Positions 3,318 through 64,000 are shown, counted from the first letter of the stretch. The stretch is 64,000 nucleotides of DNA from Minisyncoccota bacterium (GCA_021734945.1 JAIPIA010000002.1:194829-258828); one strand, 5' to 3'. Notes: generated by a model not told the origin, from the sequence alone. Made by a program: numbers and translations.

Positions 3318-4073
3318 TTAAATGGAAGCACTCCATACACTGTCAAACACAAACCTCTGTGTTTTTGCCATCTCAGCACTCTCGATAATAAGGGTAAATA
3401 TCTCCGTATCACTCATTGAAAAAATATAAATGCGATCTTTAATTATAAATTGGTCAGTCAGACCTGCCTTATTTTTATCATCAAGATACTTCACTTGGTG
3501 ATAGGGTCTCTTATTTTTACTAACACTGTCAACCCACTCTTTACTCTTAATTCCTCCAAAAATAATTTCTCTAATTTTATATTCCTTAAGATTTTTGAGC
3601 ACTCTGTTATATTCCTGCACTACCTCTGGAAATTTTTTTGATAAGAAGCCTATATTGCCCATCCAAAGGCCCTCTACTTCCTCTTGAAAAAGAACGTCAA
3701 ATGCTTCTTTATATGCTTGGCGTATTCCCTCTATACCCTCAAGCATTTGCACTTTTGGTTTACCTGATACAGATCCATATTTTGCAGTCAATTCAGGAAG
3801 AACATCATTAAACTGATTTTTTCTAAAATCCAAAATCTCACCTATTCGTTTTGGGTGGACAGCTGAATATACCTTTTTCTTTCCCTTTTTGATTTCTGAA
3901 ACAAGACCTAGTAATTGCAATTCATCGATAATGAGATACACCGTTGGACGCTTTAAAGATGCACGCTTTGCAACTTGAGTCATTTGTCCACTACCTAGTT
4001 CTAAAAGGGCGTTATAGACAACTGATTGCTTTTCAGTTAGCCCCAGCTTTTGAAGTATTAATTGATGTTCCAT
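3318..4073 (-). CDS. TrmB-family wHTH transcriptional regulator (paralog 1 of 8)
   Basis: N-terminus LGLTEKQSVVYNALLELGSGQMTQVAKRASLKRPTVYLIIDELQLLGLVSE matches the TrmB HTH signature. Divergent from the ABC operon at 4276..7626. Confidence 0.65.
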   Translation of the reverse strand: MEHQLILQKLGLTEKQSVVYNALLELGSGQMTQVAKRASLKRPTVYLIIDELQLLGLVSEIKKGKKKVYSAVHPKRIGEILDFRKNQFNDVLPELTAKYGSVSGKPKVQMLEGIEGIRQAYKEAFDVLFQEEVEGLWMGNIGFLSKKFPEVVQEYNRVLKNLKEYKIREIIFGGIKSKEWVDSVSKNKRPYHQVKYLDDKNKAGLTDQFIIKDRIYIFSMSDTEIFTLIIESAEMAKTQRFVFDSVWSASI

Positions 4074-7656: not shown

Positions 7657-8145
7657 TTACTTTACCTCAGCGCTGTCTTTATGGTCATGCCCATTTTCAT
7701 GTCCGTGTACGTGTGGCTCATGAGCATCTTTATGATCCTTACCCACTGATGACTCCGCAGGCTTTGATTCTACTGATCCTGCTTCCGTCTTCTTTTCTCC
7801 ACGTCCAAAAACTTTTGCAAAGAAAAATAGATATATTAGCTCTAGTATCCCGAATGTATTTATAACCAAAAGTGCGACAAACCACCATTTTTCATTTCTC
7901 TTTGCAGCATGCCAAAGTGCATATCCTTTTATAGCGATAGTCCAAAGTAATGCCAAGAAAAACAATATAGACAGAACTGAAATAGTAAAAAGTGACACTG
8001 GTCCAAACCCGTCAAAACCTCCTCCAAAGTGATTTCCGAACATACTGCCGTGGTATCCTCTACCGTAACCCTCTGCCATCCATGTTCCTGATTGCATCAT
8101 ATGATTTTGCGAAATCACGTCGAGCGACTGAATCTGCTGATTCAT
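7657..8145 (-). CDS. Small membrane protein (DUF5652-like) with His-rich C-terminal tail
   Basis: Gly-rich N-terminus, two TM helices (WWFVALLVINTFGILELIYLFFFAK), tail HKDAHEPHVHGHENGHDHKD. Confidence 0.4.
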   Translation of the reverse strand: MNQQIQSLDVISQNHMMQSGTWMAEGYGRGYHGSMFGNHFGGGFDGFGPVSLFTISVLSILFFLALLWTIAIKGYALWHAAKRNEKWWFVALLVINTFGILELIYLFFFAKVFGRGEKKTEAGSVESKPAESSVGKDHKDAHEPHVHGHENGHDHKDSAEVK

Positions 8146-8220
8146 GTCGCGTCGAGGCTTCGTCCTATTGGACTCGACCTCTTAGCTCGACGCTTTTTCT
8201 GTTTTAATTAGTGTATTTAC
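8104..8220 (-). repeat. Leader repeat copy A: 5' UTR plus first codons of the DUF5652-like gene
   Basis: Reverse complement matches 14279..14372 at ~80% identity. A 29-nt block (aggtcgagtccaataggacgaagcctcga) is identical and contains stem GTCGAG/CTCGAC. Confidence 0.55.
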
Positions 8221-36790: not shown

Positions 36791-36955
36791 GAGATTTTAT
36801 ACTCTTATATTATGCCGTAAATATGTATTTTGTGAAAGTTTGACAGACAATCAGTTTTAGATAAAATATAGATACTTTTGGGATTTCCCACGACCCCGCT
36901 CGAGAGAGCGGGGATAATTTTTTCTAAAGGCCTAGTAGGATTTGTAATTTTCTCT

Positions 36956-37324
36956 TTAATTGTATGAATATTTTTCGTCAATTTCACCATGTTTGTTAAC
37001 TAACCTTCGATAGTCGAACATTCTTATTTGCGAAAGATTGGCGGTAATGAACTTATTTTTATATAAGAATGAATAAAACCAAGTCCCCTCTTTAAACTTA
37101 GTAGTAAAAGGTATTCCGATAAACACTGTAGCGCTAAGTTTCTTTAATACAAGTATAGGTCTTGCAAACAAATCACCCTTACCATTAATTTCTACTCCAA
37201 TATTTTTGCCAACGCTACACCACCAAATTTCGCATTCTTTTAAAAAAGGAGGTTTATTATCCCTTGAATCAATTTGTTTTTTCTTTTCACTCCACTCTAA
37301 AAACGTATTCTCCACATCTCTCAT
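36956..37324 (-). CDS. MazF/PemK-like toxin-fold protein (orphan; paralog 1)
   Basis: CEIWWCSVGKNIGVEINGKGDLFARPILVLKKLSATVFIGIPFTT parallels MazF GDLIWVDFDPTKGSEQAGHRPAVVLS...CVPCTT. Confidence 0.45.
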   Translation of the reverse strand: MRDVENTFLEWSEKKKQIDSRDNKPPFLKECEIWWCSVGKNIGVEINGKGDLFARPILVLKKLSATVFIGIPFTTKFKEGTWFYSFLYKNKFITANLSQIRMFDYRRLVNKHGEIDEKYSYN

Positions 37325-51080: not shown

Positions 51081-51989
51081 TTAAAGCATCGCACTGAACT
51101 TCGTGCCAGTGAGAGCAAGACCCCAGAAACCTTTTGTTCTGACCAATTTCTGAGTATCTTCCCCATCGAAGCTGTTTGGGAGATGTGTCAGAAACATCTT
51201 ACTTTTTGCATCGACAGGCAGAGTGACAAGTGAATCAAATGGCGCATGTACTGGATCATTAGGAAACGGTGATGCATCATGAATCATCACTTTACAACGT
51301 GGAGCATACGACTTGATCAGACCCGCGTCGAAGCGAGTGTCACCTGAAATCCAGATCAAATCATTAATCAGAACTCCAGTGCTCCAAGCTGATTCTTGCC
51401 ATGATGAAGCGACAGCCGGTGTGTGCATGGTTCGGAAAGCCTCGATCTTGAAACTTCCTTTTTTGAACTGATAGATATCTCTGTCTGCGAAGGAACTGTC
51501 CTCCGTAGGCAAAAGAATGTCGTACCAGCGGTTTGAGGGCAAAGTTTTGAGGTCGTCTCCACCTTCATCCTTCGAGGACCTCAACGAATCGTGTGAGGAC
51601 AATCCGCCTGATAGACTATTGTTCCACAGATCTTGTGCCCAAGTGCGAGGAGCCCACAATGTGGCTTTGGCACCAGGGACATTACCGCGGAAATAGCGGT
51701 TATCGATGAGCATCCGATCGAGACCACCTATGTGATCTCCATGAGCATGAGTGATAAAGAAGTTTGAAATCGAAGCAGGATTGATTCCAAACCGAGTGAA
51801 CGACGCAGGAACGTTGTAGCCGCAGTCGATAAGTAAAGATTCCTTACCGAGAACAGCAATGAAACTCGTGTGCGTGTTTGCCTGCGCGGCCCCGTGACCA
51901 ATAGCATAGACTTCGAGCTGACTGCCGTCGTTTTGAAGCGAGACAGCACTAAACTGCGTAACTTTAACATGGGCTGGTTTGATTTTCAT
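51081..51989 (-). CDS. MBL-fold metallo-hydrolase
   Basis: FITHAHGDHIGGL (HxHxDH) and additional His/Asp ligands. Confidence 0.55.
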   Translation of the reverse strand: MKIKPAHVKVTQFSAVSLQNDGSQLEVYAIGHGAAQANTHTSFIAVLGKESLLIDCGYNVPASFTRFGINPASISNFFITHAHGDHIGGLDRMLIDNRYFRGNVPGAKATLWAPRTWAQDLWNNSLSGGLSSHDSLRSSKDEGGDDLKTLPSNRWYDILLPTEDSSFADRDIYQFKKGSFKIEAFRTMHTPAVASSWQESAWSTGVLINDLIWISGDTRFDAGLIKSYAPRCKVMIHDASPFPNDPVHAPFDSLVTLPVDAKSKMFLTHLPNSFDGEDTQKLVRTKGFWGLALTGTKFSAML

Positions 51990-62570: not shown

Positions 62571-62918
62571 TTATTTTTTCTTTGGATCTGCAACAGTAGC
62601 TTTAGCAGATTTTGCTGAATCGATCTCAGCCTGCTTCTTAGCCTGGTCAAGCTCCTTCTGCATCTTTCCTCCGTGTCGGATGAATTTTCGAGTTGGTGAG
62701 AACTCACCGAGTCTGTGACCTACCATTTCTTCTGAGACAAGAACTTCAACAAAAATCTTTCCGTTGTATACACCAAAAGTGAAACCTACCATTTCAGGAG
62801 AGATCTGACTTCGTCGGTACCAAGTCTTAATAACCCCAGTTTCCTGTGGTTTTTTGCCTTCAATCTTTTTCAAGAGTCTAGCTTCTACGTATGGGCCTTT
62901 TTTGAGTGATCGTGTCAT
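62571..62918 (-). CDS. rpsS: 30S ribosomal protein S19 (with C-terminal extension)
   Basis: [20 protein letters not shown]...[38 protein letters not shown]. Confidence 0.85.
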
Positions 62919-63273
62919 TTGATTTGGTTGCAGAGTCTCGTCTAACTCTATGCGAAAAATAATAGCCCTAACAGAGCTTGTGGTGACATAGTATCAAAAA
63001 ATAAAATAGTGTCAAATGGTTTTGTGTGGTGTTTTGATGAAATGAGCTTGTTTGAGGCAATACCATTGACGTACTACTTATATGGTGGTACTTTTTGCGC
63101 AGATTATGCACCTGGTATTGCCTTAGAGATTTGTTTATTAGTTGAGTTTTAGTTGCTTTTTATTGGATAAATTTGGTTTAAGCATCTGATTAAGCGTTTA
63201 AATTTTATACAATCAAAACTAATGAATAATTCTCTACGGCAATACCCTACAACAAATAGGAATTGACCGTGGT

Positions 63274-63600
63274 TTGACAGATCAATCCTTCACCACTACC
63301 CTCATGCCTACCAACATCCCCTTAACCACTGTCGCTGCAAAACGTCGTGTCGTCACAACGATCGCAAAACTCAGCAAGCTCTGTATCACAGGATACACTA
63401 TTACGATGGCATACCACGGAGAAGAACTCCACGTTATTGCCTTGGTCAATTCCAGGGTCAATTTGCTCAAGACCAAGACGGATAAGCCTTCAGCTTGTCG
63501 TTGCCGCTGTGCGTATCTCGTCACCCCAGGAGGCGACATAGGAGAAAAGATCAAGTCCAAAAAAATTGACCTCAACAATGATGGTCGCTGGACTTGGTAA
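63274..63600 (+). CDS. Hypothetical small ORF inside the GC-richer insertion between rpsS and rplB
   Basis: 108-aa ORF, with an antisense 98-aa ORF at 63282..63578. No motif recognised. Coding status uncertain. Confidence 0.2.
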   Translation: MTDQSFTTTLMPTNIPLTTVAAKRRVVTTIAKLSKLCITGYTITMAYHGEELHVIALVNSRVNLLKTKTDKPSACRCRCAYLVTPGGDIGEKIKSKKIDLNNDGRWTW

Positions 63601-63743
63601 AATCGACAGCGCCTGGAACTTTCTCATTATTTACAGCCGCCTATCGCATCTCAAAGCGACGGGTGGCTGTTCATTTTCAATAAAATTGCATTAAGCTAGA
63701 ACTTCTCAGTTTTTCTATTAAAGGAGCGAGTAAACAAAAACAC

Positions 63744-63786
63744 GCATGTATGGATGAAATCCCGGATACATGCGTGTTTTTGCTTT
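63744..63786. terminator. Strong bidirectional rho-independent terminator immediately downstream of rplB
   Basis: aaaaACACGCATGTAtggatgaaatcccggaTACATGCGTGTtttt: 11-bp stem with U-tracts in both orientations. Confidence 0.55.
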
Positions 63787-63803
63787 ACGAGCGACTGTCT
63801 TAT

Positions 63804-64000
63804 TTATTCTTCCCTACTTTTCGTCGTGAAACGATGAGTCGGTTTGAATATTTCTTTGGTCGTCGTGATTTCTGTCCCTTACCTGTTGGTTTACCGTAGA
63901 TAGAGATAGCTCGTCGTCGTCCTCGTCCTTGTCGGCCTTCACCTCCTCCGTGTGGATGATCCACAGGGTTCATGGCTGTACCTCGAACTGTAGGGCGAAT
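63804..64000 (-). CDS. rplB: 50S ribosomal protein L2, C-terminal part (gene continues beyond window end)
   Basis: Reverse translation gives ...[39 protein letters not shown]...; the HPHGGGEG motif is L2-specific. Confidence 0.8.

Follow-up and report, generated by a model that had tools for sequence, protein, structure and literature searches.

The genes rplB and rpsS, which encode the ribosomal proteins L2 and S19, are separated by 881 bp in a Minisyncoccota bacterium (GCA_021734945.1 JAIPIA010000002.1:194829-258828; this stretch of 64,000 nucleotides is referred to below as the window). The spacer probably marks where one transcription unit truly ends and another begins, a state inherited from an ancestor of a large clade of Paceibacteria, of the Parcubacteria type within the candidate phyla radiation (CPR). 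We place the probability of this reading, which is drawn from sequence comparison, at about 0.72. It makes the spacer one case of an old, lineage-wide re-wiring of the S10 operon, and not a one-off insertion.

The arrangement that we propose is as follows. Transcription of tuf-rpsJ...rplB would end at a two-way terminator, which lies 14 nt past the rplB stop codon, and rpsS...secY would be transcribed from a sigma-70-type promoter of its own. The resulting transcript, from A 62981 onwards, would fold almost immediately into a short hairpin and then run into a U-tract. The DNA between terminator and promoter would turn over freely, because the two halves of the operon would no longer need to be co-transcribed, and it would gather unrelated cargo in each lineage. 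In the window this cargo would be a single small unit, divergent and on the other strand, comprising a promoter, a long 5′ hairpin and a swappable 380-bp segment with an open reading frame (ORF) of 108 amino acids (ORF108). This antisense unit would end at a terminator of its own, and then at the shared two-way terminator.

A break between rplB and rpsS in a clade of Patescibacteria

One genome per species, together with metagenome contigs, was scanned with L2, and the distance from L2 to S19 was then measured. A strict promoter was defined as TTGACn-N16-18-TAnnnT within 160 nt upstream of rpsS. Among the loci with an L2 identity of at least 57%, which form the clade group (n = 27), 22 have a gap of at least 130 nt and 21 have a strict promoter; the median gap is 691 nt. 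In the comparison group of other bacteria (n = 116) the median gap is 37 nt, a gap of at least 130 nt occurs once, and no locus has a strict promoter. The named loci of the clade group all belong to the Patescibacteria, with Paceibacterota, Kaiserbacteria, Zambryskiibacteriota, Taylorbacteria and Minisyncoccia among the names. In two further clade loci (L007 and L010), S19 is absent up to a distance of 4 kb from rplB. The best relative in the metagenome scan with L2 was 69% identical, and closer relatives came from a search with the S19 protein and from contig look-ups. A sequence identical to that of the window is present in a 103-kb Logan contig (L001, traced to SRR12088351), in which L4, L23 and L2 are followed by the 881-nt gap and then by S19, L22, S3 ... 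SecY.

An earlier interpretation, made from the window alone and called here the sequence-only reading, had held that the S10 operon is split, probably by an insertion of foreign DNA. The split itself is supported by the terminator and the promoter, but it is not specific to this genome: a large gap, a terminator after rplB and a promoter before rpsS recur in Paceibacteria-type relatives. The same reading had stated that conservation of the spacer in all relatives would speak against it. What relatives have in common is the break and the promoter block, and not the content of the spacer.

The order of events is suggested by the tightest junctions of the clade. In L014 and L023 rplB and rpsS lie only 54-60 nt apart, yet a promoter is found between them, and in L084 and L090 a TTGGAA-17-TATAGT element that overlaps the end of rplB was recognised by eye. 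Because junctions of 54-60 nt already hold a promoter, the promoter may have arisen first and the tight linkage may have been lost later. The same loci bear on the possibility that the operon is functionally unsplit, with a leaky terminator and an rpsS promoter that acts as an internal booster on top of read-through, as in other long operons. At 31-66 nt, these junctions contain a promoter and no terminator, which suggests that the promoter first arose within an intact operon. We nevertheless regard an unsplit operon as unlikely, given that the hairpin after rplB in the window has 20-bp arms, a folding energy of -34 kcal/mol and U-runs, and that 700 nt including a predicted opposing transcription unit lie beyond it. 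Moreover, an A-run, a terminator-like hairpin and a T-run of their own are found directly past the rplB stop codon in nearly all large-gap relatives.

The predicted rpsS promoter and its leader hairpin

The only intergenic DNA that can be aligned between the window and eight relatives (L002, L162, L163, L167, L168, L170, L171 and L174) is a block of ~70-80 nt that contains the predicted rpsS promoter and the start of the leader. Its identity of 74-92% compares with 72-77% for the upstream ribosomal-protein genes in the same comparisons. The nearest species-level relative (L002, L2 88% identical) has just 79 nt in common with the spacer, at 62944-63022 of the window. The promoter reads TTGACA-16-TGaTACTAT (63015-62988), and its hexamers vary little or not at all across 8 relatives, with a variable spacer between them (alignment A5). 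The sequence-only reading had argued that rpsS-secY would need a separate promoter, and a good candidate, as conserved as coding DNA, is present upstream of rpsS.

The consensus of the block consists of TTGACA, a variable 16-17-nt spacer, TG-n-TA(C/A/G)TAT, and 7 nt ending in a conserved A-C. This is followed by AGCUCU-nUU-AGGGCU and then by AUUAUUUUUCGC; the stretch CAAGCTCTnTTAGGGCTATTATTTTTCGC is nearly invariant among near relatives. The rpsS transcript is predicted to start at A 62981, a conserved A 7 nt past the -10 box, which would therefore place the hairpin at the very 5′ end of the rpsS messenger RNA (mRNA). Across relatives the stem starts 4-9 nt past the -10 box, or ~-2 to +3 from a predicted start, and the distance from the hairpin to the AUG ranges from 30 to 130 nt.

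A hairpin past the promoter also occurs beyond the near relatives. A hairpin of at least 5 bp with a T-rich tail begins 3-15 nt past the -10 box in 15 of the 23 rpsS promoters of the clade, against an expectation of 0.18 loci from shuffled sequences and a frequency of 0.9% at arbitrary positions of the same loci. Distant relatives have other stems that are still complementary, read by hand as AGCUC/GAGCU, CGCUC/GAGCG, AGCCC/GGGCU, CCCGC/GCGGG, ACGCC/GGCGU and UUGCCG/CGGCAA. In six relatives (L002, L004, L007, L008, L011 and L021) a promoter, a hairpin and a U-tract are arranged in this way before tuf as well, the gene that immediately precedes rpsJ in these genomes. There the element lies ~150-200 nt upstream of tuf, and a consensus promoter is followed by a leader of 130-280 nt that contains no tRNA. 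A general property of promoters in this genome was considered as an explanation and rejected, as the hairpin and U-tract are missing from other promoter-like sites of the window and, among the sites scanned, recur only before tuf.

A covariance model built from near relatives gave one strong match in the 64-kb window, at the rpsS leader, and also found the leaders of L004, L016, L089, L091 and L005. As a test of covariation this model (R1) was set aside, since it recovered only leaders of similar sequence and little covariation was gained. Alignment of the distant leaders with MAFFT and RNAalifold left the stems out of register and predicted no structure. A search for known RNA families and tRNAs gave nothing in the window, in the spacer or in 16 relatives; Rfam gave no match at gathering score in the window or these relatives, and nothing at the leader even at an expect value (E) of ≤10.

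The hairpin and U-tract are most likely a 5′-terminal stabilising stem-loop on a heavily used mRNA, and less likely a weak promoter-proximal attenuator. Some weight has to be given to an attenuating or factor-binding role, because the U-tract is constant and 30 nt are near-invariant. In its strongest form, such a role would make the elements of rpsS and tuf attenuators, or leaders bound by a ribosomal protein, that couple both operons to ribosome supply. Consistent with this idea, the U-tract always comes after the stem, the 30 nt that include loop and tail hardly vary in near relatives while the promoter spacer does, the layout recurs upstream of tuf, and a distance of 30-130 nt to the AUG fits a transcriptional rather than a translational role. 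We find the idea doubtful all the same. The stems are short and weak, those of tuf and rpsS from one genome are unrelated in sequence, and those of distant relatives differ, contrary to what a sequence-specific protein site would require. No Rfam leader family matches, and termination less than ~25 nt from the start would be unusual.

Predicted terminators and organisation of the spacer

The ribosomal-protein cluster lies on the minus strand of the window. The ORF calls put the rplB stop codon at 63800-63802 and the ATG of rpsS at 62918, so that the spacer covers 62919-63799; its features are listed in Table 1. Its GC content rises to 0.46-0.49 at 63300-63700, compared with ~0.37 for the window, and the 355 bp before rpsS (62919-63273) are AT-rich, with a GC content of ~0.33. 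Much of this had been described correctly from the sequence alone. The GC-richer stretch with overlapping ORFs of 108 and 98 amino acids on the two strands, followed by ~350 bp of AT-rich DNA, agrees in coordinates and GC content, and the large spacer is real, although its length is 881 bp and not 885 bp. A Pfam search of every ORF in the spacer returned no family.

Table 1. Features of the rplB-rpsS spacer and its flanks (positions in the window; UTR, untranslated region).
Feature	Position	Strand	Basis and remarks
rpsS (S19), lead gene of the downstream unit reaching secY	62571..62918	-	ORF; Pfam table of L001
Predicted transcript start A 62981, 6-bp hairpin AGCUCU-GUU-AGGGCU (62978-62964), U-tract AUUAUUUUU (62963-62955)	62955..62981	-	Terminator-like match
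Conserved rpsS promoter-plus-leader block	62944..63018	-	Covariance-model match, 98 bits; sole intergenic similarity to L002 and L162-L176, 74-92% identity
Predicted rpsS promoter: -35 TTGACA (63015-63010), 16-nt spacer ending in TG, -10 TACTAT (62993-62988)	62988..63015	-	Promoter scan, 10 of 12 plus TG
GGCAATACC motif	63056..63064	+	Also at 63114-63122 (reverse) and 63238-63246; these two copies make up the base of the long hairpin
Predicted antisense promoter TTGACG-17-TACTTT, start near 63101	63066..63094	+	Regular-expression match; kept in L167
AT-rich hairpin, 133 nt, 30-nt arms, in the predicted 5′ UTR of the antisense unit	63114..63246	+	Inverted repeat I1
Variable 380-bp segment, GC ~0.48	63253..63632	+	Unrelated sequence in L167
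ORF108, orphan, 108 aa, TTG start; internal ATGs at 63304 and 63406	63274..63600	+	ORF call
ORF98, 98 aa, antisense to ORF108	63282..63578	-	Codon score -0.083; no Pfam family
Second hairpin (63633-63670) with T-rich tail on the + strand only, predicted terminator T1 of the antisense unit	63633..63679	+	Fold; kept in L167
Predicted two-way intrinsic terminator T2, with an A-run, a 12-bp GC-containing core stem lengthened by A:U pairs, and a T-run	63732..63785	both	Inverted repeat I2; fold
rplB (L2), 3′ end	63800..64000	-	ORF and translation; full 280-aa L2 in L001, Pfam Ribosomal_L2_N and Ribosomal_L2_C

The hairpin closest to rplB, T2, has arms of 20 nt (63732-63751 and 63766-63785) that are 95% complementary and contain a perfect 12-bp core. 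It folds with -34.3 kcal/mol on the plus strand and -32.2 kcal/mol on the minus strand (z -8.2 and -7.1), and 0 of 200 shuffled sequences were as stable. A U-run stands next to the stem on either strand, UUUUUGC on the plus strand and UUUUUGUUU on the minus strand. In a close relative, L167 (S19 96% identical), the stem is kept with both of its sides altered at three positions, from CACGCATGTAT/ATACATGCGTG to GACGTGTGTAT/ATACACACGTC. The folding scores and these compensatory changes uphold the bidirectional terminator that the sequence-only reading had placed just past the rplB stop codon; a hairpin is indeed found where an 11-bp stem at 63744-63786 had been described, and the measured extent and arms replace those figures. 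The second hairpin, T1, is likewise present in L167, where hairpin and T-rich tail have kept their orientation, and an analogous antisense-oriented terminator occurs in L163 (S19 92% identical).

Exchange of the sequence between terminator and promoter

The sequence upstream of the rpsS promoter block is best understood by comparison with L167. The block itself differs by one base, and L167 has 33 extra nt in the 5′ UTR. The predicted antisense promoter has the same two hexamers in both genomes, 17 nt apart, but differs at 7 of the first 11 positions of the spacer. The 133-nt hairpin that follows has a folding energy of -44 kcal/mol on the plus strand (z -6.5), compared with -32.5 kcal/mol on the minus strand; both of its arms are kept in L167, with 61 nt of the apical part missing. 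The GGCAATACC motif at its base has 4 matches in the window, of which 3 are in the spacer, against 0.16 expected, and the copy at 63056-63064 is not kept in L167.

Between these conserved parts lies a segment that has been replaced. In a pairwise alignment with L167 (A4) the flanks are 80-100% identical, and 63253-63632 is at random level; no blastn or tblastx match of this segment to any relative was found. In its place L167 has an ORF of 100-111 amino acids that reads in the same direction; its codon score of 0.18-0.19 is native-like, and its length has a chance probability of p = 0.01. A third, unrelated ORF of 81-94 amino acids is found in L163, where a two-way terminator is also present and the antisense promoter stands back-to-back with the rpsS promoter. 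The GC-rich ORF segment that the sequence-only reading had singled out is, in other words, a replaceable piece within conserved flanks.

Other relatives show a similar freedom of content. The gaps of different relatives are not homologous to one another, and their cargo includes DUF5674 in L006, SAICAR synthetase in L009, MazEF in L012, DUF3298 in L015 and L018, diacylglycerol kinase in L016 and PMT_2 in L162, as well as many further ORFs without a Pfam family. In L162 (S19 97% identical) similarity ends at the upstream edge of the promoter block, and the PMT_2 gene lies beyond. The cargo of L005 comprises YkuD, L10, L7/L12, a helix-turn-helix protein and an MscS-like protein, and that of L010 has rplJ-rplL among other genes. 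With rplJ-rplL (L10 and L7/L12) lying between rplB and rpsS alongside unrelated genes in L005 (4840-8080) and L010 (4840-8837), the junction also captures translation genes. Separately, it was observed that the GC content of junction cargo tends to be higher, at 0.47-0.57, than the ~0.42-0.44 of the ribosomal-protein genes of the host (L002, L163, L168, L171, L174 and L162), as is the case in the window.

A recent foreign or mobile insert, by which a lineage-specific piece of 881 bp brought its own terminator and ORF into an intact S10 operon, would account for some of these features. The ORF segment is GC-richer (0.48 versus 0.37, and 0.55 versus 0.29 at third codon positions, GC3), it has no counterpart in any relative and is replaced in L167, and cargo ORFs of several relatives are likewise GC-richer than their hosts. 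However, just 380 of the 881 bp are peculiar to this genome. L167 has the same terminators, antisense promoter, long hairpin and rpsS promoter, and the break between rplB and rpsS is clade-wide. Nor was there a transposase or integrase, a flanking direct repeat, a second copy in the 64 kb, or phage or plasmid similarity; the search of the spacer for phage, plasmid and viral sequences gave a 32-nt chance match and nothing else. We therefore regard an insert of this kind as very unlikely, and for the spacer as a whole foreign insertion is already refuted. A miniature inverted-repeat transposable element or insertion sequence was rejected on similar grounds, with no Pfam match and no other copy in the 64 kb, and with the 30-nt inverted repeat lying inside the conserved flank and not around the variable segment. 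The spacer had also been counted as the third GC-rich islet of the window; two other regions, at 13-16 kb and 51-52 kb, are indeed GC-richer, but they have no sequence in common with it.

Several points weigh against a boundary of two transcription units. Four or five clade members have tight junctions of 31-66 nt, so that the break is not universal, and in these members there may be read-through. Relatives were picked by similarity of L2 and S19 and not by phylogeny, and all sequences come from metagenome assemblies. The -10 box of the antisense promoter (TACTTT) is poor. The leader hairpin is weak at ~-6 kcal/mol, and the fold of the whole leader has a z of -0.4. In the covariance-model alignment, which is biased towards similar sequences, both sides have changed at 1 of 6 pairs, and the argument from covariation leans on the distant relatives that were read by hand. 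Finally, promoter firing, termination, transcript starts and the role of the 5′ hairpin are all predictions, in contrast to the layout, the pattern of conservation, the spread over the clade and the exchange of the ORF segment, which are observed.

If the boundary is nevertheless accepted, a wider idea can be put forward, which we consider fairly unlikely. The hairpin and U-tract common to the tuf-S10 and rpsS-spc units could be an undescribed control element of translation genes, and the freed junction, which would have a back-to-back promoter and ready-made terminators, could serve as an expression-ready landing pad at which orphan genes, perhaps newly arisen, come and go.

Coding potential of ORF108 and ORF98

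ORF108 was searched against 5.8 billion clusters, and 1.84 billion representatives were scanned in full with HMMER. The sole match was to itself, as a 64-amino-acid NCBI call from a 'Candidatus Pacebacteria' metagenome-assembled genome; there was no viral match and no Pfam family. A stop-free run of the same length occurred in 11% of dinucleotide shuffles of 63250-63720 (p = 0.11), and the length of the ORF alone is therefore weak evidence for a gene. Long stop-free runs on both strands jointly occurred in 1% of shuffles. The codon score of ORF108 is -0.034, which is in the range of shadow ORFs and below all 46 long genes, and its GC3 is 0.55. A structure predicted by AlphaFold from the single sequence has no confident fold (mean predicted local distance difference test, pLDDT, 41; predicted template modelling score, pTM, 0.25). 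Homology between ORF108 and the ORF of L167 had been suspected by eye and was ruled out by BLASTP (E 0.62) and by a global alignment z of ~1.

ORF108 may still be a real gene for a small protein, recently acquired or newly arisen, that is expressed from the antisense slot and translated. It nearly fills the segment between the conserved promoter with its 5′ hairpin and the conserved terminator, and the same slot holds a credible ORF, in the same place and orientation, in L167 and an ORF of 81-94 amino acids in L163. Its low codon score is compatible with coding, because the genuine, foreign PMT_2 gene of L162 scores equally low on the same test (-0.063). Set against this are the lack of a homologue in any database searched, the lack of relationship to the ORF of L167, a length within chance, a codon score within the shadow-ORF range and the pLDDT of 41. 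It also has a TTG start, with a start context that is unrecognisable because the genome is almost without Shine-Dalgarno sites. On balance we consider a translated gene a serious possibility, with the odds slightly against it. ORF98 is most likely a shadow ORF, and neither a promoter nor a terminator was found in its orientation.

Other features of the window

A Shine-Dalgarno-like motif precedes only 2 of the 57 genes of the window. In many genes a -10 box lies ~6-8 nt before the ATG (examples are the starts at 4073, 9419, 25406, 38526 and 39943), which suggests that leaderless mRNAs may be widespread in this genome.

The linkage of the spc and alpha operons is also broken in this genome, because secY is followed by genes for NUDIX, 2OG-Fe(II) oxygenase and TrmB proteins and not by adk/map/infA/rpmJ/rpsM (55070-53127 in the window; L001:9981-13751).

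An inverted duplication of ~85 nt is found at 14293-14380 (+) and 8105-8192 (-), with the core GGTCGAGTCCAATAGGACGAAGCCTCGAC...GAATCnGCAGATTC...GTGATTTCGCnAAATCA. One of the copies is found between infC and rpmI-rplT, the place of L20-binding leaders in other bacteria, and the other lies just upstream of a DUF5652 gene and overlaps its start. The segment has no Rfam match even at E ≤1 and is a candidate for a new ribosomal-protein leader.

The interval 36840-36910 (+) contains a consensus-like promoter, TTGACA-N16-GATAAAAT; a hairpin, CCCCGCTC-GAGA-GAGCGGGG, comes 26 nt after it, and then ATAATTTTTT. No plus-strand ORF lies downstream of this element, which adjoins a MazF-like gene (36956-37324, -) and may give a tiny transcript or serve as a shared terminator. 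At 51081-51989 (-), in the kilobase with the highest GC content of the window (0.47), lies a gene for a protein of the metallo-beta-lactamase fold, whose best Pfam match is the anti-Pycsar Apyc1 family; this kilobase has no sequence relation to the spacer.

Significance and relation to known systems

Few gene adjacencies in bacteria are better conserved than that of rplB and rpsS, which is implicit in the use of syntenic ribosomal-protein markers for the binning and phylogeny of uncultured lineages. A clade-wide break with a promoter of its own would mean that reduced CPR genomes have re-partitioned the S10 operon. It would also provide a small, defined promoter-plus-leader element in a group of organisms whose transcription signals are almost entirely undescribed. 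Unrelated cargo at one insertion-tolerant site, in genomes with S19 89-97% identical, forms a natural series for the gain and loss of orphan genes. A literature search found nothing on a break between rplB and rpsS in CPR bacteria or on the rpsS leader.

Fission of the S10-spc-alpha cluster by insertions between operons is described for Gammaproteobacteria and Bacilli (PMC6735719, PMC8046335). As far as the abstracts tell, the present case is similar in that a conserved translation cluster is cut by lineage-specific insertions, with a promoter for each part. It differs in that the break falls inside the S10 operon, between rplB and rpsS, and not between operons, that it is found throughout a CPR clade, and that it is accompanied by a conserved promoter-leader block. 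The S10 leader of Escherichia coli, with its attenuator dependent on L4 and NusA, offers a second comparison (PMC3616713). Like that leader and the ribosomal-protein leaders of Rfam, the rpsS element would be a conserved structured RNA that opens a ribosomal-protein operon, with a hairpin and then a U-tract. Unlike them, it has no Rfam match and consists of a single stem of 5-6 bp at the extreme 5′ end, the sequence of which varies within the clade.

Stem-loops at the 5′ terminus are known to stabilise mRNAs, as in the ompA type of E. coli and in the 5′ stem-loops of Bacillus that block RNase J. The rpsS hairpin would resemble these in its position, beginning ~0-3 nt from where a highly expressed mRNA is predicted to start. 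It departs from them in the U-tract that always follows and in being common to the tuf and rpsS operons across the clade; a stabilising role here is putative. Two-way Rho-independent terminators between convergent genes share with T2 a GC-containing stem with an A-run on one side and a T-run on the other, converging units and compensatory changes in the stem, and compared with these T2 is ordinary in build and remarkable only by its location. The same can be said of the parts in general: the terminator, the sigma-70 promoter and the 5′ stem-loop are ordinary, and what stands out is the unusual place, the fixation of the break in a large clade of uncultured bacteria, and a junction that behaves as a hotspot for orphan cargo.

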